Virus record (IMG/VR): IMGVR_UViG_3300037346_000580
Span: 1 to 64,000 of that record
From: a virus
Taxonomy: Duplodnaviria; Heunggongvirae; Uroviricota; Caudoviricetes
Direction: 5' to 3' (one strand)
Length of the DNA: 64,000 nucleotides
In this document: in pieces, positions 1-26,086 of the stretch
How positions within the stretch are numbered: the stretch's first letter is position 1
Layout of the letters: each line of letters starts with the position of its first letter
Position numbers and translations under genes: made by a program
The notes under the pieces: generated by a model
Told to the model about the DNA's origin: nothing
Databases searched by the model: none
Seen by the model: the letters and a program-made list of their open reading frames with translations, nothing else

Positions 1-3000
1 TTCCTGATGATCCACTAGTACCTGATGATCCACTGGTTCCTCTAGTTCCCGAAGTTCCTGATGATCCACTAGTACCTGATGATCCGCTAGTTCCTCTAGT
101 TCCCGAAGTTCCTGATGATCCACTAGTTCCTGAAGTACCTGATGATCCACTAGTTCCTGATGATCCACTAGTTCCTGATGATCCACTGGTTCCTCTAGTT
201 CCCGAAGTTCCTGATGATCCACTAGTACCTGATGATCCACTAGTACCTGATGATCCGCTAGTTCCTCTAGTTCCCGAAGTTCCTGATGATCCACTAGTTC
301 CTGAAGTACCTGATGATCCACTAGTTCCTGATGATCCACTAGTTCCTGATGATCCACTGGTTCCTCTAGTTCCCGAAGTTCCTGATGATCCACTAGTACC
401 TGATGATCCACTGGTTCCTCTAGTTCCCGAAGTTCCTGATGATCCACTAGTTCCTGAAGTTCCTGATGATCCACTAGTTCCTGAAGTACCTGATGATCCA
501 CTAGTTCCTGAAGTTCCTGATGATCCACTAGTTCCTGAAGTTCCTGATGATCCACTGGTACCTGATGATCCACTAGTTCCTGATGATCCACTGGTTCCTC
601 TAGTTCCCGAAGTTCCCGATGATCCACTAGTTCCTGAAGTTCCTGATGATCCACTAGTTCCTGAAGTACCTGATGATCCACTAGTTCCTGAAGTACCTGA
701 TGATCCACTAGTTCCCGAAGTACCTGATGATCCACTAGTTCCTGATGATCCACTAGTTCCTGATGATCCACTAGTTCCCGAAGTTCCTGATGATCCACTA
801 GTTCCCGAAGTACCTGATGATCCACTAGTTCCCGAAGTTCCACTAGTTCCTGATGATCCACTAGTTCCTGAAGTTCCTGATGATCCACTAGTTCCTGAAG
901 TTCCTGATGATCCACTAGTTCCTGATGATCCACTAGTTCCTGATGATCCACTGGTTCCTCTAGTTCCCGAAGTTCCTGATGATCCACTAGTTCCTGAAGT
1001 TCCTGATGATCCACTAGTTCCTGAAGTACCTGATGATCCACTAGTTCCTGAAGTTCCTGATGATCCACTAGTTCCTGAAGTTCCTGATGATCCACTGGTA
1101 CCTGATGATCCACTAGTTCCTGATGATCCACTGGTTCCTCTAGTTCCCGAAGTTCCTGATGATCCACTAGTTCCTGAAGTACCTGATGATCCACTAGTTC
1201 CTGAAGTACCTGATGATCCACTAGTTCCTGAAGTACCTGATGATCCACTAGTTCCCGAAGTACCTGATGATCCACTAGTTCCTGATGATCCACTAGTACC
1301 TGATGATCCACTAGTTCCCGAAGTTCCTGATGATCCACTAGTTCCAGAAGTACCTGATGATCCACTAGTTCCTGAAGTTCCTGATGATCCACTAGTTCCC
1401 GAAGTACCTGATGATCCACTAGTACCTGATGATCCACTGGTTCCTCTAGTTCCTGAAGTTCCTGATGATCCACTAGTTCCTGATGATCCACTAGTTCCTG
1501 ATGATCCACTGGTTCCTCTAGTTCCCGAAGTTCCTGATGATCCACTAGTTCCTGAAGTTCCTGATGATCCACTAGTACCTGATGATCCACTAGTTCCCGA
1601 AGTTCCTGATGATCCACTAGTTCCTGAAGTTCCTGATGATCCACTAGTTCCTGAAGTTCCTGATGATCCACTAGTTCCCGAAGTACCTGATGATCCGCTA
1701 GTTCCCGAAGTCCCTGATGATCCACTAGTTCCTGATGATCCACTAGTACCTGATGATCCGCTAGTTCCTCTAGTTCCCGAAGTTCCTGATGATCCACTAG
1801 TTCCTGAAGTACCTGATGATCCGCTAGTTCCTGATGATCCACTAGTTCCTGATGATCCACTAGTTCCTGATGATCCACTAGTTCCTGAAGTTCCTGATGA
1901 TCCACTAGTTCCTGATGATCCACTAGTACCCGAAGTACCTGATGATCCACTAGTTCCTGATGATCCACTAGTACCCGAAGTACCTGATGATCCACTAGTA
2001 CCTGATGATCCGCTAGTTCCCGAAGTTCCTGATGATCCACTAGTTCCTGAAGTTCCTGATGATCCACTAGTTCCTGAAGTTCCACTAGTACCTGATGATC
2101 CGCTAGTTCCCGAAGTTCCTGATGATCCACTAGTTCCTGAAGTTCCTGATGATCCACTAGTTCCTGATGATCCACTAGTACCTGATGATCCACTAGTTCC
2201 TGAAGTTCCTGATGATCCACTAGTTCCTGAAGTTCCTGATGATCCACTGGTACCTGATGATCCACTAGTTCCTGATGATCCACTGGTTCCTCTAGTTCCT
2301 GAAGTTCCTGATGATCCACTAGTTCCTGAAGTTCCTGATGATCCACTAGTTCCTGAAGTTCCTGATGATCCACTAGTTCCTGAAGTACCTGATGATCCAC
2401 TAGTTCCTGATGATCCGCTAGTTCCCGAAGTACCTGATGATCCACTAGTTCCCGAAGTACCTGATGATCCACTAGTTCCTGAAGTACCTGATGATCCACT
2501 AGTTCCTGATGATCCACTAGTACCTGATGATCCACTAGTTCCTGAAGTTCCTGATGATCCACTGGTTCCTCTAGTTCCCGAAGTTCCTGATGATCCACTA
2601 GTTCCTGAAGTTCCTGATGATCCACTAGTTCCTGATGATCCACTAGTTCCTGATGATCCACTAGTTCCTGATGATCCACTAGTTCCTGATGATCCACTAG
2701 TTCCTGATGATCCACTAGTTCCTGATGATCCACTAGTTCCTGAAGTACCTGATGAACCACTAGTTCCTGAAGTTCCTGATGAACCACTAGTTCCTGAAGT
2801 TCCTGATGAACCACTAGTTCCTGAAGTACCTGATGATCCACTAGTTCCTGATGATCCACTAGTTCCTGAAGTACCTGATGATCCACTAGTTCCTGATGAT
2901 CCACTAGTACCTGATGATCCGCTAGTTCCTCTAGTTCCTGAAGTACCTGATGATCCGCTAGTTCCTGATGATCCACTAGTTCCTGATGATCCGCTAGTTC

Positions 3001-3395
3001 CTGATGATCCACTAGTTCCCGAAGTCCCTGATGATCCACTAGTACCTGATGATCCACTGGTACCTGATGATCCACTGGTACCTGATGATCCACTAGTTCC
3101 TGATGATCCACTAGTTCCTGATGATCCACTAGTTCCTGATGATCCACTAGTACCCGAAGTACCTGATGATCCACTAGTACCTGATGATCCGCTAGTTCCC
3201 GAAGTTCCTGATGATCCACCAGTTCCTGAAGTTCCTGATGATCCACTAGTTCCCGAAGTACCTGATGATCCACTAGTTCCCGAAGTTCCACTAGTTCCCG
3301 AAGTTCCACTAGTACCTGATGATCCACTAGTTCCTGAAGTTCCACTAGTTCCTGATGATCCACTAGTTCCCGATGATCCGCTAGTTCCTGATGTA
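1..3395. repeat. Tandem array of 9/18/27-bp units (cctgatgatccactagtt / cctgaagtt variants), about 3.4 kb. Unit length is always a multiple of 9, so the reading frame is preserved throughout.
   Basis: Direct reading. More than 150 near-identical units. Variants fall mostly at codon third positions. There are no unique spacers, so this is not a CRISPR array. Confidence 0.95.
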
Positions 3396-3529
3396 CCGCC
3401 ACCTCCACTTAGATTCGCCAGTAGCCACTGATATCCACTCCAAATCCATAATTGCTGGATTCCGTTATCATTGGATAAAAATGCTTGACCTATTCGGGGA
3501 GATTGTGGATATTGAGCCAATTTGGAAAT
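1..3529 (-). CDS. Collagen-like repeat protein (Gly-X-Y: GTS GSS GTS GTR ...). Partial: the C-terminus lies beyond the window start. The N-terminal non-repeat region reads ...LAQYPQSPRIGQAFLSNDNGIQQLWIWSGYQWLLANLSGGGG. There is no in-frame ATG after the upstream TAA at 3530-3532, so a TTG start at 3518-3520 is possible. The plus-strand frame 0 is also open (PDDPLVPEV repeats) and ends at TGA 3429-3431.
   Basis: Manual translation of both strands. Glycine falls at every third codon for more than 1100 codons on the minus strand. Codon third positions coincide on the two strands, so the coding strand cannot be assigned with certainty. Confidence 0.45.
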   Translation of the reverse strand, partial: MSKLAQYPQSPRIGQAFLSNDNGIQQLWIWSGYQWLLANLSGGGGTSGTSGSSGTSGSSGTSGTSGTSGSSGTSGTSGTSGTSGTSGSSGTSGTSGSSGTSGTGGSSGTSGTSGSSGTSGSSGTSGTSGSSGTSGSSGTSGSSGTSGSSGTSGSSGTSGSSGTSGSSGTSGTSGSSGTSGSSGTSGSSGTSGSSGTSGTRGTSGSSGTSGSSGTSGSSGTSGTSGSSGTSGSSGTSGTSGSSGTSGTSGSSGTSGTSGSSGTSGTSGSSGTSGSSGTSGSSGTSGSSGTSGSSGTSGSSGTSGSSGTSGTSGSSGTSGTRGTSGSSGTSGTSGSSGTSGSSGTSGSSGTSGTSGSSGTSGTSGSSGTSGTSGSSGTSGSSGTSGTSGSSGTSGTSGSSGTSGTSGSSGTSGTRGTSGSSGTSGSSGTSGSSGTSGTSGSSGTSGTSGSSGTSGSSGTSGSSGTSGTSGSSGTSGTSGSSGTSGTSGTSGSSGTSGTSGSSGTSGTSGSSGTSGSSGTSGTSGSSGTSGSSGTSGTSGSSGTSGSSGTSGTSGSSGTSGSSGTSGSSGTSGSSGTSGTSGSSGTSGTRGTSGSSGTSGSSGTSGSSGTSGTSGSSGTSGTSGSSGTSGTSGSSGTSGTSGSSGTSGTSGSSGTSGSSGTSGTSGSSGTSGTRGTSGSSGTSGSSGTSGSSGTSGTRGTSGSSGTSGSSGTSGTSGSSGTSGTSGSSGTSGTSGSSGTSGTSGSSGTSGSSGTSGSSGTSGTSGSSGTSGTSGSSGTSGTSGSSGTSGTSGSSGTSGTRGTSGSSGTSGSSGTSGSSGTSGTSGSSGTSGTSGSSGTSGTSGSSGTSGTSGSSGTSGTRGTSGSSGTSGSSGTSGSSGTSGTSGSSGTSGTSGSSGTSGTSGTSGSSGTSGTSGSSGTSGTSGSSGTSGSSGTSGSSGTSGTSGSSGTSGTSGSSGTSGTSGSSGTSGTSGSSGTSGTRGTSGSSGTSGSSGTSGSSGTSGTSGSSGTSGTSGSSGTSGTSGSSGTSGTSGSSGTSGTRGTSGSSGTSGSSGTSGTRGTSGSSGTSGSSGTSGSSGTSGTSGSSGTSGTRGTSGSSGTSGSSGTSGSSGTSGTRGTSGSSGTSGSSGTSGSSGTSGTSGSSGTSGTRGTSGSSGTSGSSGTSGTRGTSGSSGTSGSSG

Positions 3530-3587
3530 TTAATTTAATCTATATATCGTCATCCGAGTAATTCCATTTAGTGTATAGTTATAAATT

Positions 3588-4760
3588 TTAATGACAATTA
3601 ATGTCATTGTTAATTTTCAACGCTTCTACGACCTCGTAACCTTGGTCTCTACGTTTGTTTTTGGTAAGGTCGTCTAAACTCCTACGACCTTCTTTTAATA
3701 TATTTTGACTTGCTAATTGGTCACGAGAATTTATTGCTCCGCAACTTGCGCAAACCCACTCTCTATCAGAAAGTTTTAACTCTTTATTTTTTACTCCACA
3801 TCCACAAGTTTTTGAAGAAGCATAATAACGGTTAACTTTATGTACTGTTTTACCGTACCAATCTGCTTTGTAAGTTAACATAGCTGTAAACTTTGACCAA
3901 CTTGCATCTGAAATACTCTTTGACATTAACTTACTCTCTAACATATCTTTAACTCCTAAATCCTCTATAAAAATAGTATCATAGTTGTTAATTAGTTGTG
4001 TTGAATAATTGTGTAAAAAGAAATCTCTTTGGTTTGTTGTCTTTTGATAAAGTTTTGCAATTTTTAATTTACATTTATCTCTACGTTTACTTCCTTTTTC
4101 TTTTCTTGCGAAGTGTTGTTGTAATCTTTTTAATTTAGCTTGGTTTTTGCTAAAGAATTTTGGATTACTAATCTCAATGCCATCGGATTGGGTTGAAAAA
4201 ACTTTTACACCTAAATCTAATGCACATTCTTTACCTGTTTTTAATTTATAATTAATTTCTTGTTCCACTAAAACTGAAGCAAAGTATTGACCACTTGAAT
4301 TAACTGAAACAGTTACAGACATAAACTTACCAGCTAAAGGTCTATCTAAAACTATTTTAATTTTGCCTATTTTCTCTAATCTTATTTTACCATCTTTTAT
4401 AGAGAATTTTTGGTTAGGTAGTCTAAAGGACTGTTTACTCTGTTTTTTCTTAAAGTTGGGTCTGCTTATAGTTGACTTTCTTGTTTTATTAAAGTATTGT
4501 TTTTTAAACTCTTTAAAATCTATTTCTTTTTGTTGTAAAATAGAAGCAGAAACTTCTTTTAACCAACTTACCTCTTCTTGGTTTCTGAATTGTGTAGAAG
4601 TGAGGTAAACAGGCTTTGGATTTTTTTCTACATCATAAGAATTAAAAACAGATGTCATATAGTTCCAAAAATATCGTGAACAACCAAAACTTTTACTTAG
4701 TAAAGTTTCTTGTTCTTGATTAGGATATATTCTGAATTTATATGATTTTAATTTATTCAC
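3588..4760 (-). CDS. tnpB: TnpB (OrfB_IS605/Fanzor-like RNA-guided nuclease family), 390 aa.
   Basis: N-terminus YKFRIYPNQEQETLL. RuvC-I ALDLGV, RuvC-II FIEDLG, zinc finger CGCG...CASCG, RuvC-III RDQLASQNI. All catalytic residues are present. Confidence 0.8.
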   Translation of the reverse strand: MNKLKSYKFRIYPNQEQETLLSKSFGCSRYFWNYMTSVFNSYDVEKNPKPVYLTSTQFRNQEEVSWLKEVSASILQQKEIDFKEFKKQYFNKTRKSTISRPNFKKKQSKQSFRLPNQKFSIKDGKIRLEKIGKIKIVLDRPLAGKFMSVTVSVNSSGQYFASVLVEQEINYKLKTGKECALDLGVKVFSTQSDGIEISNPKFFSKNQAKLKRLQQHFARKEKGSKRRDKCKLKIAKLYQKTTNQRDFFLHNYSTQLINNYDTIFIEDLGVKDMLESKLMSKSISDASWSKFTAMLTYKADWYGKTVHKVNRYYASSKTCGCGVKNKELKLSDREWVCASCGAINSRDQLASQNILKEGRRSLDDLTKNKRRDQGYEVVEALKINNDINCH

Positions 4761-5325
4761 CTATTGAATTTTTAATAATTTGTTCTGTTAATCTTTTACT
4801 TCTTCTTCTACCGTATAACCTTGCAACAAATGATGTTATTATAGAAACAAAATCTTGCATTAAATCATCTTCATCATTTGTTTGAGGATTAATTATTTCA
4901 ATTTTTCTTCCTTCTAACGCTAAAAGCTTCTGTATATAGTTTGTTCCAAATCGAGCTAACCTGTCCTTATGTTCTACAACTATAAGATTAATTGTCTTAT
5001 CCAATAAAATAGATTCTAATTTTTTACGTTCATCATTTAATCCTGAACCTATTTCAACAACTACTTTTGAAACATTATAACCTTTGGCATTACAGTAGGA
5101 AATTAACCTTTCTTTTTGTCTATTTAAATTATCTTTATTTTCAGAACTAGACACTCTAGCATAGACAGCAACTTTTAAATTTAGGTGCGCTTCTTCAACA
5201 ATTTCTACAAAAACTCTTCCTGTACTACTTTTAATAATATCTAATTCTCCTTTTGCAATCATTCTCCATAAAGTTCTAACAGAAACCCCTGACATTTTTG
5301 CGTATTTTGATAATTTTACTTTCAT
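4753..5325 (-). CDS. tnpA: IS607-type serine recombinase/transposase TnpA (MerR-like HTH plus resolvase catalytic domain).
   Basis: N-terminal HTH (VSVRTLWRMIAKGEL). Catalytic motif VYARVSSSENKD typical of serine recombinases. Confidence 0.75.
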   Translation of the reverse strand: MKVKLSKYAKMSGVSVRTLWRMIAKGELDIIKSSTGRVFVEIVEEAHLNLKVAVYARVSSSENKDNLNRQKERLISYCNAKGYNVSKVVVEIGSGLNDERKKLESILLDKTINLIVVEHKDRLARFGTNYIQKLLALEGRKIEIINPQTNDEDDLMQDFVSIITSFVARLYGRRRSKRLTEQIIKNSIGE

Positions 5326-5385
5326 ATATTTACTATTTCAATAACTGTGCCAAAGTACTTGATTGTCTCTAATTGTCATTAATTT

Positions 5386-6750
5386 TTATAAACTAATTAA
5401 ATATCTTATATAATTACCAATGCTGTCTTGTGTATTGTTCCAAGATAACCAAGTAGTACCATCTGTTGAATATTCCCAAGTTCCATACGCTGAAGTATCT
5501 ATGGTGTCACTAAAAATAAGTAAATTAGTTGATGAATCAAATAATCTCAGTTTTAAATCCGGTATATTGCCAGACCATGAGCTCACTTGTTGCCATGTAA
5601 ATATTTTGCTAGATGCTGATGATTTTGCAAGAGATGGTAAATAATGAGAATCTTGAGATCCGTCTTCATATATGCAACCAACACCATAAATTCTTGTAGG
5701 TACACAAACTTCACCTAAAATATCAAGTTCAAACATAAATTGAATATATTGTCCAGGTATATTTCCAGATATATCGCCATTTACACCAACTTCGGTCCAT
5801 GAACCGGTGTTATCATCAATACCAGAAGTTCTAAAATAAACTTTGTATGCCTCAGGTTGAAAACCTAGAGCATAAGATCCTAAATATTCTGCGTTATCTA
5901 CATATACTCTATACAGCTTTGTCGCGTCTGTCGTTGGAATCTTAGGCGCTATAATTCTTTGATTTGTTGATGATGCATAAAAAGCATCGGCAGCCATAGG
6001 AAAAGCAAAAAACCAGCTAAATTGTGTTATTGTTGATACCGGAATAGCAAACATATATCCACCCGCAGTCCAGATAGATAACGTGGATTGTGGGAATAAA
6101 CCGTCAGATGCACCTGGTGGGGTAGCTGATAATTTTTTTCTGTTTGTGTTAGTACCTACTATTTTATCAAATGGAATTGAACTAGAAGGATCATAATCAC
6201 CAACATAAACCCCTACTCGCCCTGCTCCTGTAGTTATAAAAATTCTATCCAATGTCTCGCTATAATCTATTTGAGCTAATGAATTTGTCAGTGTAAAAAC
6301 TGCATTGATTCCGCCAGGTGGAATCTCAATCATTGAGTCCGATATCCAACTAGTTGAGGATGCAATTATATCTGATACTTTAACTCGGTAAATTCTAGTA
6401 GATGTAACAAACCATAAGCACTTTACTCCATTAAATGGCCCATGATTTAAGGTAAATATTCTACCATTATTTAATTGAGAAATTAACCCAATTACTACAG
6501 CAGTAGCTGTTTTAAATTCAAATGCGCTTACACTAATTCCACCAACCACTGTCAATGGAGCACGTAAATTAAATTTATGAATTCTAGCATTTACTGTATT
6601 ATCTGCATTTAGAAAATATATGTCATGTCTACCATTATTTACAAAGTCGTCACTTCCTAATCCAGCACCTATTGTATAAAAACCAGTAAATACGGTATGT
6701 GTGCCGGATTGAGAGACATCCTCCTGCCATATCAACTGCCGATGCAGCAT
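5386..6750 (-). CDS. Putative tail fibre / receptor-binding protein (454 aa, rich in S/T/G/N/Y).
   Basis: Composition and length are typical of phage distal fibre domains. It is adjacent to the collagen-like repeat gene. No specific motif was recognised. Confidence 0.4.
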   Translation of the reverse strand: MLHRQLIWQEDVSQSGTHTVFTGFYTIGAGLGSDDFVNNGRHDIYFLNADNTVNARIHKFNLRAPLTVVGGISVSAFEFKTATAVVIGLISQLNNGRIFTLNHGPFNGVKCLWFVTSTRIYRVKVSDIIASSTSWISDSMIEIPPGGINAVFTLTNSLAQIDYSETLDRIFITTGAGRVGVYVGDYDPSSSIPFDKIVGTNTNRKKLSATPPGASDGLFPQSTLSIWTAGGYMFAIPVSTITQFSWFFAFPMAADAFYASSTNQRIIAPKIPTTDATKLYRVYVDNAEYLGSYALGFQPEAYKVYFRTSGIDDNTGSWTEVGVNGDISGNIPGQYIQFMFELDILGEVCVPTRIYGVGCIYEDGSQDSHYLPSLAKSSASSKIFTWQQVSSWSGNIPDLKLRLFDSSTNLLIFSDTIDTSAYGTWEYSTDGTTWLSWNNTQDSIGNYIRYLISL

Positions 6751-7423: not shown

Positions 7424-8111
7424 AATGTTTGAAAATTTTGAGCGAAATAATTCATTATTTTCTATTTGCGATAAACTTATAGGTGATTCCGATATATGGA
7501 AAAGAAATAGGGACAAGGTAAAGTCACTTGATCCTGATTTTGAACTAAGACAGATAAACGTTCCTGGCGTGGAGGCAAGCTTCGATGCAAATGAATCAAG
7601 ATCAAATAATATAATTATAGAAGTTGGACCAGGTAATGTCGACGATTCCACAATGGCGCACGAGCTTATTCATGCATTGCAGTTTATGGAGAGAGGTGAA
7701 TTAGATATATTTACGCAGGATGCAACAAGGGAGTTTTTAGTATTATCAGATGATAACGTTTGGGAATATTTTATGCTTGCAATCTATATGAGTGATGAAC
7801 TAGAAGCAGAAGCACAAAAGGCGGAGCTTAAATTCGGTTTACAGAAAACCCAAAAGGAAGTGATTGATTGGATAAAAATGAACACCCCTGAAAAAATAGC
7901 TAAACAAATATCCTTATTGGTACCAAATGACAATGAATTTGAACTTGAAAGCTTTGATGAATTTCCGGATCTATGGGTTAGCGTTTATTTAAACTATACA
8001 GATATTGGAATTGATAAATATCTGGAAGAACTAAAGGATAAATCATTATTGGAATTTGTTGCTTATTATTATCTAAAATTTAGCGCATTTATTAAATATA
8101 TGGAATCATAA
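7410..8111 (+). CDS. HExxH zinc-metallopeptidase-like protein (motif MAHELIHALQF).
   Basis: HELIH motif, ImmA/IrrE-like context. It overlaps the upstream gene by 14 nt. Confidence 0.5.
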   Translation: MMHIKMFENFERNNSLFSICDKLIGDSDIWKRNRDKVKSLDPDFELRQINVPGVEASFDANESRSNNIIIEVGPGNVDDSTMAHELIHALQFMERGELDIFTQDATREFLVLSDDNVWEYFMLAIYMSDELEAEAQKAELKFGLQKTQKEVIDWIKMNTPEKIAKQISLLVPNDNEFELESFDEFPDLWVSVYLNYTDIGIDKYLEELKDKSLLEFVAYYYLKFSAFIKYMES

Positions 8112-8143
8112 AAAAAGCCTGAGCATTACACTCAGGCTTTTTT
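8109..8143. terminator. Bidirectional rho-independent terminator (A7-GCCTGAGC...GCTCAGGC-T7) between convergent genes.
   Basis: Perfect 8-bp stem flanked by A-run and T-run. Confidence 0.7.
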
Positions 8144-8155
8144 TATTAACTCCGA

Positions 8156-8866
8156 TTATTTGTTAAACACAACGGTAATAGTAGCACCTGTTCTTTTAGC
8201 AATTCTTGAAAGTGCATCAAAATCTGTTTCTGTTATAGGTTGTACTTCAGAAATTATTTTTTCTTTCTTATCAGCAGGAACAGAAGCAACCTTCTCCACC
8301 ACTGGTAAATTTTTATTTTTAACTTTAGCTGCTCTCATTTTTTCCATCCTCAATAACATAGCAGCTTTCTTGTCATCAACCTTATGATCTTCAATTTTTT
8401 GGGCTGCTGCCTCCAATTTTTTCAATGTTGATTTTCTGATAGTAACTGCTGCTTCAGTTCTGTTTAAAATCATGCCGATAAATTTAGCAGAATTTCCCTG
8501 CGCATATAATGATAATAATTCTTTATCATCCTCACTAGACCATGATGATCTTGGTGACTTAACCTTTACTTGATGCTGGATTGGGGTTCTAGAGATCACT
8601 CTGATCGGTAACTCGTTTCTTTTTTTCTTTTTGTTTGTAGAAATTGATTTAGGAACATCAATTTCCCTACCCTTAGATGATTTCAAACGAACATCAACAT
8701 GCAGTGTATGTTTTCGTGTTGTTACTGCCATAATAGTTCGTCCCAATATTTTTGCAATCTCAGCGCCAGTAGCTCCACCTCTTGCCATTTTGATTAATGT
8801 TGAATCATCCGCAGTTGACCAGCCTCTTCTGTTAGAAGGTGCTTTAGGATTTCTTTTAATTTCCAT
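8156..8866 (-). CDS. DNA-binding protein with two HTH repeats (GATGAEIAKILGRTIMAVTTRKHTL and SAKFIGMILNRTEAAVTIRKSTL).
   Basis: Internal duplicated HTH-like segments. It is basic. It is preceded by the TTAATTG repeat leader and the conserved promoter. Confidence 0.5.
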   Translation of the reverse strand: MEIKRNPKAPSNRRGWSTADDSTLIKMARGGATGAEIAKILGRTIMAVTTRKHTLHVDVRLKSSKGREIDVPKSISTNKKKKRNELPIRVISRTPIQHQVKVKSPRSSWSSEDDKELLSLYAQGNSAKFIGMILNRTEAAVTIRKSTLKKLEAAAQKIEDHKVDDKKAAMLLRMEKMRAAKVKNKNLPVVEKVASVPADKKEKIISEVQPITETDFDALSRIAKRTGATITVVFNK

Positions 8867-8906
8867 ATTTGTTAATTGTTAATTGTTAATTGTTATAATT
8901 ACAATA

Positions 8907-8940
8907 CAAATATATGAAATAATCCCGAGATAAAAAAATT
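8907..8940 (-). promoter_or_regulatory. Conserved phage promoter motif, instance 1. On the minus strand it reads T7-ATCTCGGGATT-N-TTCATATATTTG-TATTGT.
   Basis: One of about 15 copies of CAAATATA(T)G...TTCGAATAAAAAAA (plus-strand reading) lying upstream of minus-strand genes. Confidence 0.55.
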
Positions 8941-8985
8941 ATTTTACATAAAGTTTCACGATATATAGATAAAATATATTAATTT

Positions 8986-9345
8986 ATGGACAATTATATA
9001 AAACTATATTCAGATTTCATTAATGAAGCTGATAAAAAAGGGGAAAGCTTTGAAGATTTTGCAAAAACCAGATTGACTGGAGCTGCGAAAATAGCCGAAG
9101 CTGCTAAAGAGAAGGGCGGTGATGCTCTTCTAACTTATCACCATTTTAGGGTTAAATTACCGGTTTATGAAAAAGCTGGTGGTGGAAATTTTGATCCTGT
9201 TGAAGCAAAGGATGAGATGGAAGCTCTAGTTAAAGCCTTGGTTAAAGGAACTGCTGGTTCTATAAAACTCGAACAGACTGAATTTCAAAAGCTCGTTGGC
9301 CTCATAGAGGTCTTTGGAGAATTACTAATAAGAAAAGGTGCTTAA
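8986..9345 (+). CDS. Hypothetical protein (119 aa).
   Basis: ORF. A GATATATA box lies about 25 nt upstream, as for the other plus-strand genes. Confidence 0.45.
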   Translation: MDNYIKLYSDFINEADKKGESFEDFAKTRLTGAAKIAEAAKEKGGDALLTYHHFRVKLPVYEKAGGGNFDPVEAKDEMEALVKALVKGTAGSIKLEQTEFQKLVGLIEVFGELLIRKGA

Positions 9346-9647
9346 TTAAGCACCTTTTCTGTTTCATTCAATTTGTTGTAATATTTCATCCTAATTGACT
9401 TGTATCCATGCCCCTGATAGAATATTCTATTTCTAATAACATTCTTTGCATCGTTATTATAATTGTCAATATACCAATCTATATTGATGTTTGATTTGGA
9501 TTTGATTTTCCCATTAACCTCGTTGAATACTCCTTCCCCGATCTCCTCGATTTTAAATATTCCTTTCTCACCCCTAATAAATGCATGCTTAGAAGTTATT
9601 CTTAAGTAGCTAACTACATCTTGTCTGTTTTGTTCTTTTGTTTTCAT
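9342..9647 (-). CDS. Hypothetical protein (101 aa).
   Basis: ORF. Confidence 0.4.
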   Translation of the reverse strand: MKTKEQNRQDVVSYLRITSKHAFIRGEKGIFKIEEIGEGVFNEVNGKIKSKSNINIDWYIDNYNNDAKNVIRNRIFYQGHGYKSIRMKYYNKLNETEKVLN

Positions 9648-9664
9648 GATTTTTTTATTTTTAA

Positions 9665-10288
9665 TTAATTATTTTTTAGTATCCATTGATAGAATCCAGG
9701 TTTTATATTGTTGTCTAATTTTTCCCATAGTCCTGACAGCTGGACGGATTCAGTCATGTATATGTTTGACCCCTGGGATTTACCATTTTCATCAAATATC
9801 TCCCATGTGTAATAGACATGCATACCCCTTTCAGTGTCTACCTTTTTATTCTGAAACCATGTCCATCCTTTTCTTGAATTTTCTATCATCTTCTGTTTTG
9901 CATTCTCAAATAACCGATCATTTATTTCCTTGTTTGAATCGAATGCTTCTCTTGCTTGTTTCAATATTCTTCCCTTTCTCTCGTTTCTTTGTTCATCGTT
10001 ACAATAACAAGCAAGTTCAAATTTAAAAAGTTTCTCAATGTCCTCCCATTTTGAATCTCTTGAATATTTATTTTCCACAAACCCATGGACATCTTCACAA
10101 TAAACATCAACCTTATATCCCTCTGCTGAATAAACATATTCACCTTTATCGTTTATGTAGGCATAAGGTCCATCCCAATAACCTTCTTTTTCTATTGCTG
10201 CTACTGGTATTCCTCCCTCCATTCTGATGTGTCCATTACCCTCAGGATCTGCTTCCCGTAACATCTTTATAAATTCGTTCGTTGTCAT
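9665..10288 (-). CDS. Hypothetical protein (207 aa).
   Basis: ORF. Confidence 0.5.
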   Translation of the reverse strand: MTTNEFIKMLREADPEGNGHIRMEGGIPVAAIEKEGYWDGPYAYINDKGEYVYSAEGYKVDVYCEDVHGFVENKYSRDSKWEDIEKLFKFELACYCNDEQRNERKGRILKQAREAFDSNKEINDRLFENAKQKMIENSRKGWTWFQNKKVDTERGMHVYYTWEIFDENGKSQGSNIYMTESVQLSGLWEKLDNNIKPGFYQWILKNN

Positions 10289-10380
10289 AATTTTTAATTT
10301 ATTTTTATTAATTTATTGTTTGTTTCGCTTCATATAAAGCTCGCTGCTTGATTATTTTTATCCTCTTATACAAATGTATC

Positions 10381-10734
10381 TTATACCTCAAATTCATTCT
10401 TTAGTGTCTCGTATTGTTTCTTTCTCTCTGCTTTTTTTGCCTCCTCGTACCTTGCCCTATCTTCCCTTTGTTTTTGTTCCCTTTTGATTCTTTCCTCCTC
10501 CTCCTTGGTCTTTCTAATCTGTATATGCTCATCAAGATCTATTGTTAGATCGTTAGCGTTTATCGTCTCTGATTCATATTCGGTTCCTCCATAGGATACA
10601 CTCCATGAACGGCTGCAGTAAAACTCTCCATCGGATAGAAGTTCTATAGAATCTGGTTTGTAGCCAGTTTTTGCAATAAATATCTGTTCCACTCTGTCGT
10701 GGATTGTGATTAGTTGTTCACCTGTTATTTTCAT
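10381..10734 (-). CDS. Hypothetical protein with a charged coiled-coil C-terminus (117 aa).
   Basis: ORF. The stop overlaps the start of the upstream gene. Confidence 0.45.
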   Translation of the reverse strand: MKITGEQLITIHDRVEQIFIAKTGYKPDSIELLSDGEFYCSRSWSVSYGGTEYESETINANDLTIDLDEHIQIRKTKEEEERIKREQKQREDRARYEEAKKAERKKQYETLKNEFEV

Positions 10735-11159
10735 TATTTTTGTTTTTTAAGTTCTAATTCTTTTACCCTTCCCATTATAATGCCTCTATATTTTTTATGT
10801 AATTCATATGGGATATTCATTACTATATTGTGCCCCTTAGAGAATATGTGGTTTATATAGAGATCAACATGCTCACTTGTGAATTCGGTGAATATTTTAT
10901 TACTTGGTTTATACCAGCTGTCCTCTCTTGCATAAGCATAAACATAATAGAGTTTTCCTGCTTCCTTTTGATATTGAATGTATATTAGTAACAAATCCCA
11001 TAGTTGATCTGGTGTTAATAAACCATGCTCTTCCAGAACAAGCATTGTTGTTGCTAATCTTCCCATCCTGTTGCCTAAATTTGTATGCTTTCCATAGGCT
11101 CTTTTTGTACTCAGCTTTTTAAGAGAGTCAAAGTTTCTTGTTTTTAGAATTCCTTTCAT
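10734..11159 (-). CDS. Hypothetical protein (141 aa).
   Basis: ORF. ATGA overlap with the ORF upstream. Confidence 0.5.
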   Translation of the reverse strand: MKGILKTRNFDSLKKLSTKRAYGKHTNLGNRMGRLATTMLVLEEHGLLTPDQLWDLLLIYIQYQKEAGKLYYVYAYAREDSWYKPSNKIFTEFTSEHVDLYINHIFSKGHNIVMNIPYELHKKYRGIIMGRVKELELKKQK

Positions 11160-11492
11160 GTCGTTTGTAGATTTTTTAGAGATAACGAAAGGTGGGACAA
11201 TGATTTTCTAACCTCTGGATTGCCAAAAAAGCATGCAGAAGTATAGGCGTCAACATCAGGCTCAAAAAACAATGATGCCTGTGTAACGTGTCTGAATTTT
11301 TCGTAAATTTTAATTAAATGTGCTTCTGATTTTGCAGAGAGACAAATTATAGAATTTGTTGTCTCTTTCCATTCTTTGAACTTTGTGGGATGTTCATATG
11401 CAAAATCTGCAAGGCTATGACAAGCCTGTGGTAATTGATAGCCTTCTGAGTGAAGGTCTGCTCTGGTAACTATTACCAGTTTCGTTTCCTGA
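11157..11492 (-). CDS. Candidate PTH2-like peptidyl-tRNA hydrolase ORF of about 110 codons with no in-frame ATG (...KLVIVTRADLHSEGYQLPQACHSLADFA...). Either a non-ATG start or a decayed gene.
   Basis: Manual translation. Pattern V-I-V-x-R-x-DL....G....Q.CHS resembles the PTH2 N-terminal motif. Open from TAG 11493-11495 to a TGA overlapping the ATG at 11159. Confidence 0.3.
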
Positions 11493-11730
11493 AATTTGTT
11501 AATCTAAGTCATTTTCTTAATTTATTTTATTATTATACATTATTTTTTGTTTTTGTTTCATTTTTTATTGGTTATATTCTTCAGGCCTTATACCGTCAGG
11601 GAAAGATAACTTTGCATTTGTTAAATCAATGGAAGAATAAACGTCGGTAATCTCCTTCCTTGTTCTGCTGCTTATATTTAAGCAAACCTCATAAACCCAT
11701 TCATCGAACGCCATATTTAATTTATTTTAG

Positions 11731-11845
11731 TGGTCAGAACAGGATTCGAACCTGTATCTCCAATGTCTTACCAAAGGCGAGTCTACCCGATGCGTAAAGC
11801 AATTCCTCTACCTGACTTAGCTTCTAACAGATTATCAGTTCTGAC
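11731..11845 (-). tRNA. tRNA-like gene A (T-arm ACAGG-TTCGAAT-CCTGT, acceptor 3' strand TTCTGAC). The matching 5' acceptor GTCAGAA lies 115 nt upstream, too far for a canonical tRNA.
   Basis: Reverse complement contains GGTTCGAATCC and an acceptor-stem match. No clean cloverleaf could be built by eye. Confidence 0.4.
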
Positions 11846-11904
11846 GCTTTACACAGCTTAGCTATTTTTGGGTTGCCCCTTACTCTCCGCTATTTGAGTT
11901 TTGT

Positions 11905-11985
11905 GATCCCCACCGGGCTCGAACCGGATACGCTGAGTTTAGAAGTCAGTTTGACGCCATGTCAATTAAGTTTAGGGACCTTTTT
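11905..11985 (-). tRNA. tRNA-like gene B (about 77 nt; 5' GGTCCCT pairs with 3' GGGGATC using two G-U pairs; T-loop TTCGAGC).
   Basis: Acceptor/T-arm complementarity. D and anticodon arms are not convincingly resolved. Confidence 0.4.
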
Positions 11986-12076
11986 CTTTACTTAGTTATT
12001 ATTAAAAATATAACAATGAATATTATTCCTATTATTCCTATTATTGCTTTTCTCATTTTATTTTATTTTTAATTAC

Positions 12077-12118
12077 AAGACAAATATAAGAAATTATTTT
12101 TAAATAAAAAAATAATTT
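12077..12118 (-). promoter_or_regulatory. Conserved promoter motif instance (CAAATATAAG...TAAATAAAAAAA).
   Basis: Motif family member, followed by hairpin terminator 12120-12153. Confidence 0.45.
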
Positions 12119-12119
12119 G

Positions 12120-12153
12120 AAAAAAATCGGGATTTTTCAATCCCGATTTCTCT
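12120..12153. terminator. Hairpin terminator (ATCGGGATT-TTTCA-ATCCCGAT) with a flanking A-run.
   Basis: 8-bp inverted repeat. Confidence 0.55.
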
Positions 12154-12155
12154 AT

Positions 12156-12977
12156 TTATTTAATATCCTCTATACCGCTACCGAATACTTGCTTCGTTTT
12201 TGTTGAGGTGAATCCAGGTTTATAATCAATCCGTGGTCTATTCAAAATTTTATTATATAGATTATTAGGCAAAGTCTGCAGCAATATGTTATTAGCTTTT
12301 GCAATATTTTGTGACTCAACCTCTAGAGCTAAATATCCGGCTCTTTGAGTTTCTACAAATTGTGATAGATCAACATAGAAATTAGAGAAATCCCCATAAG
12401 GTACTGGCTGATTTTCTTGTAGCCATTTCCATGTAAGTTTCTCGCCATCTCGTCTTCCGTCCATGATCAATTTGGTTACCTCTATGAATGTCTCTTTGTT
12501 TTCGATTAGAACATTATGCTTAAGTGTATATGATTTCCACATATTGTCATAATATGCTTCCTTCTCCTGACTTAATTGTGCATAATCATTTTGATATAAT
12601 ACAGTTTGGTTATAGATGACTTTAGTGTCCTTATAAAACCTGCTTGCTCCAATGACTAATAGCAATAGAACCAATAAACCAGCCACACCGCCGAACGGAT
12701 TTTTATCGCCATCTTTAGGTTCTTTGAAATCCCATTCTAAATTCTGATCCAAAGATTTTCTCATTAGAATAACGATATAGACAAATAAGCCTACTAGAAA
12801 AGCAATGTTGAAAGTTGTATGCATTGCTGAAAAACTTAAGGATCCGTTGTCCTTTACTGTGTCACCTGGGAACTGTACCGTCCACATGAAGCCAAATGCC
12901 AAAAGCGAGATGACTGCGCCAATCATCTTGGAGATGAATTCTGACTTACTTAATTTACCTTTTTTAAAGATACTCAT
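12156..12977 (-). CDS. N-terminally membrane-anchored protein (273 aa), paralogous to 19080..19637 (YDNMWKSYT / YDKMWKTIS; WKWLQENQP / MKWVQESNP).
   Basis: ORF, TM helix, shared motifs with the second copy. Confidence 0.55.
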   Translation of the reverse strand: MSIFKKGKLSKSEFISKMIGAVISLLAFGFMWTVQFPGDTVKDNGSLSFSAMHTTFNIAFLVGLFVYIVILMRKSLDQNLEWDFKEPKDGDKNPFGGVAGLLVLLLLVIGASRFYKDTKVIYNQTVLYQNDYAQLSQEKEAYYDNMWKSYTLKHNVLIENKETFIEVTKLIMDGRRDGEKLTWKWLQENQPVPYGDFSNFYVDLSQFVETQRAGYLALEVESQNIAKANNILLQTLPNNLYNKILNRPRIDYKPGFTSTKTKQVFGSGIEDIK

Positions 12978-13003
12978 AGAATTAATTGTTAATTGTTAAT
13001 TGT

Positions 13004-14251
13004 TTATTTTTGATCGTCTTCTGTCCATGTAATAACTGGACAATTCTTTTTATACATACTATGTATTAAATCTCTAACCATTCCAAAGAAATCTGCCATA
13101 TAGATAATACCTTGAACCATTGCTCTGAATACTGGTCCTAACCAGCCGAAAATGAATTTAAAAACTTTTTTCATTCCTTTACCAAATTTATAGACAGGTA
13201 TTTTGGGAAGTTTCGGTGGATTAATCTTACTCATTTGCATAAAAGCCCATTTAAAAAATGGATTTATGATATATTTGAATAACGAAAATATTATAAATGC
13301 AGTAGCTATAAATACAGTTATTCCTAAAAGACCATAGCCTACATATTTCCAATTTATCCACCCGATTGTTTTAATCACTGCAACACTCAATCCCCAGATT
13401 GCAAAGTATGATATGATAACTACTAATCCAATACCAATAATTTTAGATGTTTTAGATTGTTTAAATTCCTCTATCTTAACCGCTCTTGCCCCTATAATTT
13501 TTGATTTCTCCTCCGATTTCCTTTCCTTCATCTCTATTTTTAATCTAAGCTTATTATATCTTACCCTGATTGCTTCGTCATCAATATCACGTTTCGCCCG
13601 GTACCATGCCGATCCTTTATCCTCTATCATGTATCTTTCCTTGTAAGGTAATTCATACTGATATTTTTTAAAGATCTTGCTATTCTTCAGATTATATGCC
13701 TCCTTATCTGTTATTGTTGGCAGCTTATCTAGACAATCTTTAACAAAAGATGCTCTCCTTTTTTCGTCCATTCTTTTTGAATATGTCGAGCAGGATTCAA
13801 TAAAGTTGGTGTCTACTTTTCTCGTCATCTTTACAATTAAAATAATAGGAAAGGTAAGAAATACCACTACCATTATCCAGAAATATGGACACATTGTAGG
13901 GTGGACTTTATGAGGTTCTTTACCAAAAACCCATTTATAAACTTTACAATGCCAAGCATCTTTCTTAAAAGTGTAGAAATTCTTTTTTGGTTTCTGTTCC
14001 TCAGTTACCCCTGGGATATACTTATTCTCCAGACTAATATCATACTCAGGAATTCCCAATTGACATTTACAGATTTTATTCTCTCTGTCAATGTCCCATT
14101 TAGTTGAGACGTAAACTGATTCTACATCTGGATTTTCTTTGATCTGGTCTTTGTCCTGAACCATACCAATTATTACAGTTCTTGACTCGTTCAGAATCAT
14201 TTTCTTTAGATCGTATCCAGATTTGGTGGTGTGCAAATTTAAAATCTTCAT
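13004..14251 (-). CDS. Multi-pass membrane protein (415 aa).
   Basis: ORF. Several hydrophobic helices in the central and C-terminal parts. Confidence 0.55.
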   Translation of the reverse strand: MKILNLHTTKSGYDLKKMILNESRTVIIGMVQDKDQIKENPDVESVYVSTKWDIDRENKICKCQLGIPEYDISLENKYIPGVTEEQKPKKNFYTFKKDAWHCKVYKWVFGKEPHKVHPTMCPYFWIMVVVFLTFPIILIVKMTRKVDTNFIESCSTYSKRMDEKRRASFVKDCLDKLPTITDKEAYNLKNSKIFKKYQYELPYKERYMIEDKGSAWYRAKRDIDDEAIRVRYNKLRLKIEMKERKSEEKSKIIGARAVKIEEFKQSKTSKIIGIGLVVIISYFAIWGLSVAVIKTIGWINWKYVGYGLLGITVFIATAFIIFSLFKYIINPFFKWAFMQMSKINPPKLPKIPVYKFGKGMKKVFKFIFGWLGPVFRAMVQGIIYMADFFGMVRDLIHSMYKKNCPVITWTEDDQK

Positions 14252-14323
14252 TTTTGTTTATTTTTTAATTACATGGAAAATATATAAAACATTTTCGATA
14301 TAAAAAAATTATTTTAATATTTT

Positions 14324-14722
14324 TTATATTATAAAGTGTACATATTTACCTACGTGACTTCTTAGCTCTTTAAATATCGAGTGTCCGTTCTCGTCTGCGA
14401 CATAATCAAATCCTCCATATCCACATGTCCATTCTGAATAGCACCCGGATATCAAATCGGCGTAAAGCATAGAGGCAACAACCTCCGCGCTTTGCTGATC
14501 GAACGATTTTTCCTCCAGCGGTGCTTGCTCAAGTATAACATAACGAACGTGGTATCCTGGACTTTGTTTGGTTGGGTCGTTCCAATAATCTTCCTCACTT
14601 TGATTGAAGAGATCGGTTAGCTTTCCATAAAGAGAAACTCCCCCTATTTCTACATCCTCTATATGCTCACAACAAGTAACATTTACTTTGTCACCCGACA
14701 TTATAAATCCCTTTAATTCCAT
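14324..14722 (-). CDS. Hypothetical protein (132 aa).
   Basis: ORF. Confidence 0.45.
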   Translation of the reverse strand: MELKGFIMSGDKVNVTCCEHIEDVEIGGVSLYGKLTDLFNQSEEDYWNDPTKQSPGYHVRYVILEQAPLEEKSFDQQSAEVVASMLYADLISGCYSEWTCGYGGFDYVADENGHSIFKELRSHVGKYVHFII

Positions 14723-14748
14723 ATTTTTTCCATTATTTCTATTTGTGG

Positions 14749-14973
14749 TTACTCTATTATATGACCATACTTTACGATGAATTCAGATGCACTCATCTGA
14801 TTGAAAGTCTGTGGTGTGAAATCTCTCCAATATCCAGTGGTTGTAGCATAGTCTGCTTTCTCTACAAATTCTTCAACCATTCGGGTATAGTTTGCTATCA
14901 TTATATCAGCAACCTTTCTTTTTTGTTGCTCTGTAGCTTTCTTAAAGTCAACTAAATCTTTTTCCTCTATCAT
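14749..14973 (-). CDS. Hypothetical protein (74 aa).
   Basis: ORF in an operon series with 3-nt spacing. Confidence 0.4.
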   Translation of the reverse strand: MIEEKDLVDFKKATEQQKRKVADIMIANYTRMVEEFVEKADYATTTGYWRDFTPQTFNQMSASEFIVKYGHIIE

Positions 14974-14975
14974 AA

Positions 14976-15542
14976 TTAAACTTTTTCGTCAAAAAATACT
15001 TCAAATTCGTCCCTTGAATAGAAGCCAAAAAGACCAGAACGTAATGTCTCGTTGATTGATGTTATTGACATGGTTCCGCCGAAAGTTCCGCTGTCACCAT
15101 ATCGGTATTTTAATGAAATCCTAGAAAAAGCTCTCTCCCATGATGCTATATCAGTCTTAACCCATGATCCATGTCTATCTACAACCTCATTTGTCTTAAT
15201 GTAATCTCCAAGGTGATGCCAAATGTAGCCTGAAAGTTTAGTAAATTCTTTTCTGCTTACTCTTAATGAAACTTTACGTCTCTTATAGTATGAATCATAT
15301 AATTTTTCTGATTCAGCATCAGATCTATTCTCATCATATTCTACAGGTTTAGGAAATGCACTTGGCTGTGTTTTTTCAATCGAGCTGATAAGGAAAAATT
15401 CTTGTGCTACCTTGGGCATAGCATAAAATCCTCTGGAAGCAGGAGGTGAATGGAACGTTTTTTGCTCCGATGTGTAACCATTCTGTTTCTTGAGATCAAG
15501 ACCACCGAATCTAACAAATATGTTTAGGTTCTTTCCTTTCAT
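14976..15542 (-). CDS. Hypothetical protein (188 aa).
   Basis: ORF. The conserved promoter motif is immediately upstream (15545-15580). Confidence 0.5.
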   Translation of the reverse strand: MKGKNLNIFVRFGGLDLKKQNGYTSEQKTFHSPPASRGFYAMPKVAQEFFLISSIEKTQPSAFPKPVEYDENRSDAESEKLYDSYYKRRKVSLRVSRKEFTKLSGYIWHHLGDYIKTNEVVDRHGSWVKTDIASWERAFSRISLKYRYGDSGTFGGTMSITSINETLRSGLFGFYSRDEFEVFFDEKV

Positions 15543-15544
15543 AT

Positions 15545-15580
15545 TGCAAATATATGAAAAAGAATCGAAATAAAAAAATA
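15545..15580 (-). promoter_or_regulatory. Conserved promoter motif instance (GCAAATATATGAAAAAGAATCGAAATAAAAAAA).
   Basis: Motif family. It lies 3 nt upstream of the ATG at 15542. Confidence 0.55.
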
Positions 15581-15584
15581 AAAT

Positions 15585-15968
15585 TTACCTTATTTTATCC
15601 CATTCTATTAGTGAGGAGTCTGAGATAATATGATCCCTATTCGGGTCATACCTATTTATTCTTGGACCAGTGTATTCATTAGATTCCAGTGTGAATAGAT
15701 CTATTCTTGGACGATGGAATGAATATATAGCTGGATCTTCTATTCTGCAATTGATGCATCTGCCAAAGAGTTTACCGTATAGCATAACATTATTAGGAAC
15801 CGGTATATCACACTTAGCCACACCGTTGCCTTCAACCCAATACTGCACGCATTCAGATCCTCCGCAAAGCTGACATAAAAGATGTTTAGCATAATAAAGT
15901 CTATGATTAATAATGATAGTTTCCTTTAGATCATATCCTCTAGGATCTATGAGTGTGATTTCATTCAT
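15585..15968 (-). CDS. Cys-rich hypothetical protein (127 aa; CQLCGG...C...C.NC).
   Basis: ORF. Possible zinc-binding protein. Confidence 0.45.
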   Translation of the reverse strand: MNEITLIDPRGYDLKETIIINHRLYYAKHLLCQLCGGSECVQYWVEGNGVAKCDIPVPNNVMLYGKLFGRCINCRIEDPAIYSFHRPRIDLFTLESNEYTGPRINRYDPNRDHIISDSSLIEWDKIR

Positions 15969-16242
15969 ATAAATCTTTGGCCAAATCCTTAACCTTATCT
16001 ATTTTATCCTGCGATAATGTATAATATGAATTTCTTAAATTTTTAATCGATTCAGAATATTTTGCTTCATCGAAAGTCATTCCATAATATGGTTCGCTCA
16101 AAGCCATACCAGGAGACAATAGATTGATCTCATCTATTTTATCCTGTGAAAGAGTATGATATGATCTATTTAGAAAATTAATAGCTCCTGAGTATTCAAG
16201 CTGATCAAATGTTCTTTTGCGTGATTTCGGTAATTTAAGCAT
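15961..16242 (-). CDS. Hypothetical protein (93 aa) with an internal duplication (NLRNSYYTLSQDKIDK / FLNRSYHTLSQDKIDE).
   Basis: ORF. Two-fold internal repeat. Confidence 0.4.
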   Translation of the reverse strand: MLKLPKSRKRTFDQLEYSGAINFLNRSYHTLSQDKIDEINLLSPGMALSEPYYGMTFDEAKYSESIKNLRNSYYTLSQDKIDKVKDLAKDLYE

Positions 16243-16851
16243 TTCGTTATGTTTTTGAATGTTATTTAATTATATCAGAAAAATCTGAAAGTTTCCCATT
16301 TTTTTCCAATATATAGAGCAGATAACTCGAATCTCGCGATTTTTTTCCACTAACGACTGAAATTGTGCAAAAAAATTCCACTATGGACACCGATAACCCC
16401 AAAAGAAATGCAAAGAAAAAACATTCAGACTGCTGTTCTGATCCTAGCGACATTCTTCAACCCATTAGGGTTCGACGCTCTTTTTGCATTAGTGATGCAT
16501 TGGACAGGATCTTATTTAATAACAGATGGCATATTTTATTGCCTCTCAGCTTTCTTTTTTGGAATCTATTTTTGGATTTCAGACAAAAAAGTTAGTTTAC
16601 CTAGATTGAAAAGAAAAAGTCAATCCTCAATGGATTGACTTTTCATAATACCTTTTTAAATAACATTTCTAAGCATTCCCTTATATCTGGATCATCAGAC
16701 GATTCGTACAAAACAGATGGGTGCTTACTGTTACATTTCATAAGCACATTATCGACAAACTCATCCCCCCATTTTATTTTTGCCTGATGTATATCCCAGC
16801 CTTTTATAACTATAGCTCCAATCATCTTATTTTTTTATAGATATATATTCC

Positions 16852-26055: not shown

Positions 26056-26086
26056 TTTTTAAGTGTTAATTGTTAATATTATTGAA

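Follow-up and report, generated by a model that had tools for sequence, protein, structure and literature searches.

An apparently autonomous IS607-family insertion sequence with a putative TnpB-omega-RNA system in a large phage genome

Results

The window analysed here, a stretch of 64,000 nt (positions 1 to 64,000 of the IMG/VR record IMGVR_UViG_3300037346_000580, Caudoviricetes), contains on its minus strand an IS607-family insertion sequence (IS) of 1826 bp, apparently autonomous and lying at about 3575-5400 in the genome of a large phage. Read along that strand, the locus begins with a phage gene that runs into the left end of the element, continues with the transposase gene tnpA, the nuclease gene tnpB and a structured RNA at the right end, and then, outside the element, reaches a short displaced coding segment and a giant collagen-like gene. 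The window is phage DNA: it encodes NAMPT, phosphoribosyl pyrophosphate (PRPP) synthetase, an RNA ligase and a major-head-like protein, and its small genes are dense on one strand. A preliminary description of this DNA had recognised an IS607-type element with TnpA and TnpB in a phage and had placed it at 3440-5385. The NCBIfam and Pfam families reported below and the phage genes just listed bear out the nature of the element, but not its extent, as 3440-3574 is phage DNA.

The tnpA gene (4753-5325, minus strand) encodes an IS607-family serine transposase of 190 aa with an N-terminal helix-turn-helix (HTH) and a conserved YARVSS catalytic motif. The protein scores 180.5 bits against the NCBIfam IS607 transposase equivalog NF033518, for which the cutoff is 110, and matches Pfam Resolvase at 5e-19; its match to Pfam HTH_17 is weak (17.5 bits, below the cutoff of that model). 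The catalytic domain aligns with that of IS1535 TnpA (PDB 6dgb) at 4.7e-30, and the ISC1926 TnpA domain was also matched. Immediately downstream on the same strand lies tnpB (3588-4760, 390 aa, GTG start), which overlaps tnpA by 8 nt (4753-4760), as had been noted before; the same arrangement is found in the related contigs L081, L001, L164 and L259. TnpB contains the Pfam domains HTH_OrfB_IS605, OrfB_IS605 and Cas12f1-like_TNB. The generic RNA-guided TnpB model of NCBIfam fits the protein, and the best model there is the IS200/IS605-type TnpB (346 bits, below its cutoff of 425), with only 143 bits for IS607_TnpB. Among natural solved structures ISDra2 TnpB matches best (355 residues aligned, 1.8e-64), and its residues D191/E278/D361 align with D182/E266/D347 of the RuvC domain in the window. 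These three residues, together with the zinc cysteines C319, C321, C337 and C340, are invariant in 121 homologues with at least 64% identity. The RuvC acidic residues noticed previously are therefore confirmed by the ISDra2 alignment and by this invariance; the four cysteines of the zinc finger are present as well, but their spacing is CxC...CxxC, the first pair being C319-x-C321 and not the CxxC that had been claimed. TnpB thus appears to be an intact RNA-guided nuclease, for which nuclease activity and homing, alongside transposition of the element, would be expected by analogy.

The limits of the element were drawn from alignments with other full-length copies. The closest TnpB (91% identity) is encoded on the Logan contig L081 at a different site, where the surroundings are phage-like and include genes for RNA ligase, PARP and RlaP, and the two elements are 90% identical at the DNA level; further full copies are carried by L259 (TnpB 77%) and by L001/L002 and L164/L165 (TnpB about 70%). 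The five full-length copies, including that of the window, measure 1813-1856 bp; their mutual alignments start 5-9 nt in from the left tip and extend through the final base, and no mutual similarity was found between their 1-kb flanks at E < 1e-3. Because five homologous copies stand in flanks without mutual similarity, we consider the element mobile rather than ancestral to one context, as the preliminary description had proposed, the evidence being copies across metagenomes and not several copies within one genome. The right tip AACTAT is invariant: every copy ends in ...AAATTTA(T/G)AACTAT, followed by unrelated sequence, and in the window this tip lies at 3575. In 5/5 copies a TAT precedes the left tip and another is found at the right tip, with no longer target duplication; because flank and tip have these letters in common, the position of each end carries an uncertainty of up to 3 nt. 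Previous work on IS607 has described that crossover takes place where dinucleotides match and that the guide RNA extends past the right end (PMC10711439). The TAT at both junctions is the pattern expected of such a crossover, with a core that here is AT/TA and not GG.

Two subterminal inverted-repeat arms lie just inside the tips. The left arm (5370-5391, 22 nt) begins 9 nt from its tip and is 91% complementary to the right arm (3579-3600), which begins 4 nt from its own tip and overlaps the last hairpin of the RNA described below. A motif, TTTATAAAAA.TAATGACAA, occupies a fixed position in these arms in 5/5 copies, and the left arm is a probable binding site for TnpA. Outside the left tip, the window has the pentamer GATAT (5401-5405, minus strand), a putative transposon-associated motif (TAM) and target core whose TAT is common to the right tip. 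The left-flank pentamers of the five full copies are GATAT, GATAT, AATAT, GGTAT and AGTAT, and those of relatives with a solo tnpB are AATAT, AATAT and GATAT; these eight left flanks suggest an RRTAT-like TAM. At the right tip, ACTAT (3575-3579), a C stands at position -4, where all eight left-flank pentamers (5401-5405 in the window) have a purine. This C may let TnpB tell occupied from empty sites and so protect the occupied site. The predicted circle junction of the excised element is AACTAT/TTAATTAG, or in longer form ...AAATTTATAACTAT/TTAATTAGTTTATAAAAA..., the slash marking the join. A scan for sigma-70 promoters and terminators gave no matches above chance, this promoter type being probably wrong for the host.

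The last 124 nt before the right tip (3575-3698, minus strand), mostly inside the 3' end of tnpB, appear to encode an omega-RNA scaffold (also called right-element RNA, reRNA). RNAalifold, applied to 8 sequences, gave three stem-loops within an enclosing helix, and 8/28 pairs show compensatory changes. Folded on its own, the window sequence adopts this structure too (z-score -3.25). A covariance model (R1) built from those 8 sequences found full-length matches in 30 loci, all at the 3' end of tnpB and on the coding strand; it matched in all relatives to which it was applied, the most distant having about 48% protein identity, and only once in the window. In the 30-locus alignment, 93.3% of cells are paired, compared with 71.8% in shuffles and 35-45% with slid partners, a percentage that is somewhat inflated because the alignment was fitted to the model. 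Changes on both sides occur in 23/28 pairs, and 0/500 shuffles reached the observed values. Furthermore, the 124 nt from 3698 to 3575 are conserved at the DNA level even in L164, where the open reading frame (ORF) stops upstream of the scaffold. The Rfam scan of 3000-5800 returned zero matches at E <= 5, including for RAGATH-18 and the group I intron, and a search of IMG/VR with the core motif of the RNA matched only the L001/L002 contigs. After AACTAT the sequence diverges completely in every copy, as would be expected of a variable guide position. The predicted guide is the flank directly 3' of the right end, ACACTAAATGGAATTACTCG (3555-3574, minus strand), which is present once in the window; a length of 16-20 nt, as in ISDra2 and ISXfa1, is assumed. 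The preliminary description had foreseen a guide RNA at the 3' end of tnpB, and the covariation agrees with this; the span that it gave, 3440-3590, is mostly flank.

The gene on the left of the element is now an ORF of 454 aa (5386-6750, minus strand) that ends in an IS-encoded LISL and a stop, its phage-derived part being 5401-6750. It matches residues 341-778 of a conserved family of phage proteins (about 800 aa, no Pfam domain) with 74-77% identity, and its DNA homology to L245 and L244 covers only 6714-5401. In 115 homologues the C-terminus of this family is uninterrupted and reads NYIRYT...(N/G)(G/N/L)ITVRALLTQA, then stop. In the window NYIRY is followed by the IS, and homology resumes past the right end as T-LNGIT-RMTIYRLN and a stop, which resembles the family C-terminus. 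This displaced 3' tail, TLNGITRMTIYRLN plus TAA (3530-3574, minus strand), was identified by comparison with that C-terminus; with it, NYIRY regains its invariant T, the NGIT motif reappears, and the distance to the stop is again 8 residues, as elsewhere in the family. The tail also adds +4.4 bits against a hidden Markov model (HMM) of the family C-terminus, compared with -0.9 bits for the alternative junction discussed below. Because the tail past the right end restores these features and brings this gain, the IS appears to interrupt the upstream 454-aa gene, which is of structural type, 14 codons before its stop. Accordingly reconstructed, the IS-free site reads ...AAGATAT/ACACTAAATGGAATTACTCG (across the junction ...AGATAT-ACACTAAATGG...; in longer form ...GGTAATTATATAAGATAT/ACACTAAATGGAATTACTCGG...). 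In this reconstruction (3518-3574) the tail of the gene and the collagen-like gene lie in the same frame, apart by TAA, three codons and the TTG start. For L081, L001 and L164, ORF continuity across the reconstructed empty sites was uninformative, their insertions being intergenic or at gene ends. The 454-aa gene stands without the N-terminal ~340 residues of the family, which are found nowhere in the 64-kb window, and the L244 locus has no other gene with a counterpart in the window. It could be what remains of a full gene, a C-terminal module that was exchanged, or flanking DNA that underwent co-conversion together with the IS.

On the right, the giant collagen-like gene (1-3520, minus strand) consists of G-T/S-S triplets and runs off the start of the window. 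Its triplet-repeat frame opens after a TAA at 3532-3530, has its first start, TTG, at 3520-3518, and stays open for 1173 codons to the window edge, with a tandem array at 1-3393. The right end of the element lies 54 nt upstream of this TTG. The preliminary description had suspected that the insertion took away or damaged the 5' end of this gene. However, in an exhaustive HMMER search the first 41 residues (MAQYPQSPRIGQAFL...WIWSGYQW) aligned with residues 1-41 of the homologues P0242-P0244 at 73-78% identity (the N-terminus of P0243 reads MSQFPQSPRIGQAFL...WIWSGYQWLLANIG), and the more distant homologues P0248 and P0255 also align from residue 1. Because the N-terminus aligns with residue 1 of its homologues, the 5' end is complete and was not truncated by the IS. 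The suspicion that a tail-fibre gene had been disrupted thus fails for the collagen-like gene; it is the upstream structural-type gene that appears to lose its last 14 codons. A polar or read-through effect of the IS on transcription of the collagen-like gene is possible. The same G-T/S-S triplets, with internal globular inserts, occur in a 2816-aa protein of a 735-kb megaphage (L257, LR756501.1 95065-113175, at 7830-16280 on the minus strand); this protein has a different N-terminal domain of 215 aa and is uninformative on the start of the collagen-like gene. When the element was compared by blastn with deposited phages, only the repeat region matched, in this same megaphage LR756501.

All 8 examined contexts of TnpB relatives with 65-91% identity are phage-like, with neighbours that include portal, single-stranded DNA-binding protein (SSB), exonuclease, ribonucleotide reductase (RNR) and methyltransferase genes. 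The best TnpB match in 185,579 species-representative genomes of Bacteria and Archaea (one per species) is 53% identical; this search was pattern-seeded and could miss relatives, and the same patterns recovered relatives of 65-74% in metagenomes. Three lineages have no complete tnpA but keep tnpB, the catalytic triad, the omega-RNA scaffold and the AACTAT tip, with 65-75% TnpB identity and in phage-like contigs. These copies are found in L247-L256 (for example at 2389-3680 in L247, with a 39-aa tnpA remnant), in L260 (about 3870-5182, with a tnpA remnant) and in L258 (about 3985-5176). What is left of tnpA in these relatives ranges from nothing to a 39-aa or C-terminal remnant. The L247-type copy (P0101, 17 contigs) has the same genes flanking tnpB in all 10 places shown. 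Among deposited phage records, TnpB is present in 382 and an IS607-type TnpA in 37. IS607 or TnpB is known from Thermus phage TMA, Microcystis phage LMM01, Clostridium phage c-st, Nodularia phages and Chryseobacterium phage MA9V-2. The element is thus of a kind already known in phages, and it is no new kind of system.

Discussion

Studies of ISDra2, ISXfa1 and GstIS suggest how such an element could work. TnpA would move it as double-stranded DNA, inserting it by crossover at the AT/TA core within TAT. Transcription through tnpB would yield an RNA whose scaffold (3698-3575) binds TnpB and whose 3' extension (3574 to about 3555) would guide the nuclease to IS-free copies of the site, next to an RRTAT-type TAM. 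Such a copy, in a co-infecting phage or left after excision, would be cut and then repaired from the IS-bearing copy, so that the element would be retained or spread. In the setting of co-infection it would resemble a homing endonuclease gene.

We consider it likely that the locus is an autonomous IS607-family element that was inserted here, but several points weigh against this explanation. Only a single copy is present in the 64-kb window. A second assembly, L246, has both junctions 100% identical, but it may stem from the same sample. Comparison with IS-free relatives, which the preliminary description had suggested, gave a mixed outcome: L244 and L245 carry the full interrupted gene without the IS, but no IS-free allele of this phage was found in IMG/VR, where a search with the 454-aa protein gave no relatives and an exact search with the right flank gave no empty site. 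The empty site is therefore reconstructed rather than observed. The support from the displaced tail is modest at +4.4 bits, and the covariation alignment carries the inflation mentioned above. Also, the interrupted gene may be a remnant, so the insertion may be inconsequential. Finally, expression, cleavage and transposition are predicted activities of this element.

The same facts could be read in other ways. The element might be a fixed, immobile relic whose ORFs look intact while TnpA or the ends are inactive, TnpB and its RNA persisting only by homing or drift, as in the relatives without tnpA. The close relatives L258, L260 and L247 (the last found at a single site in at least 10 contigs, with its 39-aa remnant) have indeed lost tnpA and kept tnpB and the RNA, and the single copy in the window points the same way. 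We nevertheless regard this as rather unlikely, as tnpA is full length and above the equivalog cutoff, comparison with the four other full copies shows conservation of both ends and of the inverted repeats, and the 90%-identical copy in L081 occupies a different site. Further from the evidence stands the idea that tnpA and tnpB are ancestral, domesticated phage genes, or that the junction arose when host DNA was joined in by a chimeric assembly. Phage genomes do commonly carry TnpB homologues, and inactivated derivatives such as TldR exist; against this, the catalytic triad is intact, five unrelated contexts have sharp ends, the relatives of the interrupted gene are uninterrupted and the gene resumes precisely past the element, the second assembly has identical junctions, and the close relatives are all in phage-like contigs, with none above 53% identity in species-representative genomes. 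Taken together, this makes such an origin very improbable. It is barely conceivable that this is an IStron, in which a group I intron fused to the IS607 would splice the element from the host mRNA and restore the interrupted gene. IS607 IStrons with TnpB have reportedly been described, and the element does lie inside a coding sequence, but the Rfam scan gave no group I intron, and 1.83 kb are filled by tnpA, tnpB and the ends.

A different question concerns the left end, for which two positions were weighed, after TAT at 5401 and after TTTAT at 5388. With a boundary after TTTAT(A) at 5388/5387, the IS would lie between genes or at the extreme end of the upstream gene, with LISLYTKWNYSDDDI and a stop as the natural tail of that gene and TTTAT as the TAM. 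In all copies the well-conserved stretch of the left end is indeed preceded by TTTAT, TATA or TATG is present at both junctions in three copies, and T-rich TAMs are typical of ISDra2-like TnpBs. We consider this boundary quite improbable, and 5401 is favoured, because both DNA and protein homology of the upstream gene to its relatives stop exactly at 5401, because L258 and L259 share ATGTTTA upstream of TTTAT yet occupy different sites, because TTAT belongs to the 22-nt subterminal inverted repeat, and because RRTAT-type pentamers, at a fixed offset in all copies, precede the left tip in full copies and solo-tnpB relatives alike and would be left unexplained. Moreover, L164 breaks the 4-nt (TATA/TATG) junction match, pairwise homology between the copies begins 5-9 nt from the tip of the 5401 end, and the tail that results from the TTTAT boundary scores -0.9 bits, compared with +4.4 bits for the favoured junction.

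The phage-like contexts of the relatives, together with the best match of 53% in species-representative genomes and the three tnpA-less lineages that retain the triad and the RNA, invite a broader speculation. The lineage may be essentially phage-resident and spread between co-infecting phages by RNA-guided homing, with a transposase that is dispensable and repeatedly lost while TnpB and its RNA are kept. TnpB would then act as a reprogrammable homing endonuclease, possibly also as a weapon against IS-free competitor phages. This idea is tentative, and we hold it to be possible rather than probable.

Compared with known systems, the element combines familiar parts. Like members of the IS607 family (IS607 of H. 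pylori, IS1535, ISXfa1), it has a TnpA that is a serine recombinase and bears an N-terminal HTH, a tnpB that comes next and overlaps tnpA, only a short core shared by flank and right tip, and an omega-RNA (reRNA) over the right end, as characterised experimentally for the guide RNAs of IS607 TnpBs (PMC10711439). It departs from them in the AT/TA core within TAT in place of GG, in the clear 22-nt subterminal inverted repeat, in a TnpB nearer the IS200/IS605-type model (346 versus 143 bits), in an omega-RNA outside RAGATH-18 and Rfam, and in its residence in a large phage. With the ISDra2 TnpB-omega-RNA complex (IS200/IS605; PDB 8exa, 8h1j) it shares the positions of the D-E-D triad and the zinc finger, a scaffold that overlaps the 3' end of the ORF and a right flank that would serve as guide, whereas its partner is a serine recombinase and not a Y1 HUH enzyme, its first cysteine pair is CxC, and its putative TAM is RRTAT instead of TTGAT. 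Annotated phage copies of IS607 and TnpB have the same gene types in phage genomes, but they reach no more than 44% identity in TnpB and 48% in TnpA, and the present lineage is known only from metagenomic phage-like contigs. The homing endonuclease genes of T-even phages would be alike in being selfish phage nucleases that cut the element-free allele in co-infection and spread by recombinational repair; here, targeting would be RNA-guided and reprogrammed with each insertion site, and a transposase is also carried. TldR proteins, nuclease-dead derivatives of TnpB encoded by phages, likewise pair a TnpB-family protein with a guide RNA in a phage, but here the RuvC triad is intact and the predicted guide matches the element's own flank, not a host promoter.

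Our results correct the local annotation, in that the collagen-like gene is complete with a TTG start and it is the upstream gene that the transposon appears to have struck. They also describe a well-delimited natural TnpB system, comprising the protein, a 124-nt scaffold with covariation, a predicted guide position and a candidate RRTAT TAM. In addition, they add a case in which an RNA-guided transposon nuclease persists in the genome of a phage of virulent type, where co-infection would make homing especially effective.

Other features of the window

A Shine-Dalgarno-like motif was found in 4/54 genes of the window; leaders are A-rich, and motifs resembling TAnnTTTGC lie upstream of some genes. 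The scarcity of Shine-Dalgarno motifs suggests a host of the Bacteroidota type, and the source phage, which is uncultured, probably infects Bacteroidota. A tandem heptad, AATTAAC, occurs in 2-3 copies at 8871-8891, 12981-13008 and 26065-26078 (minus strand), directly upstream of the ATG of the genes at 8156-8866, 12156-12977 and 24127-26055; six matches were found against 0.15 expected, and the heptad may be a promoter or regulatory motif of the phage. ARAGORN also called an 88-nt tRNA-Asp with the unusual anticodon ATC at 11730-11817 (minus strand), which may be a false call or an atypical tRNA.

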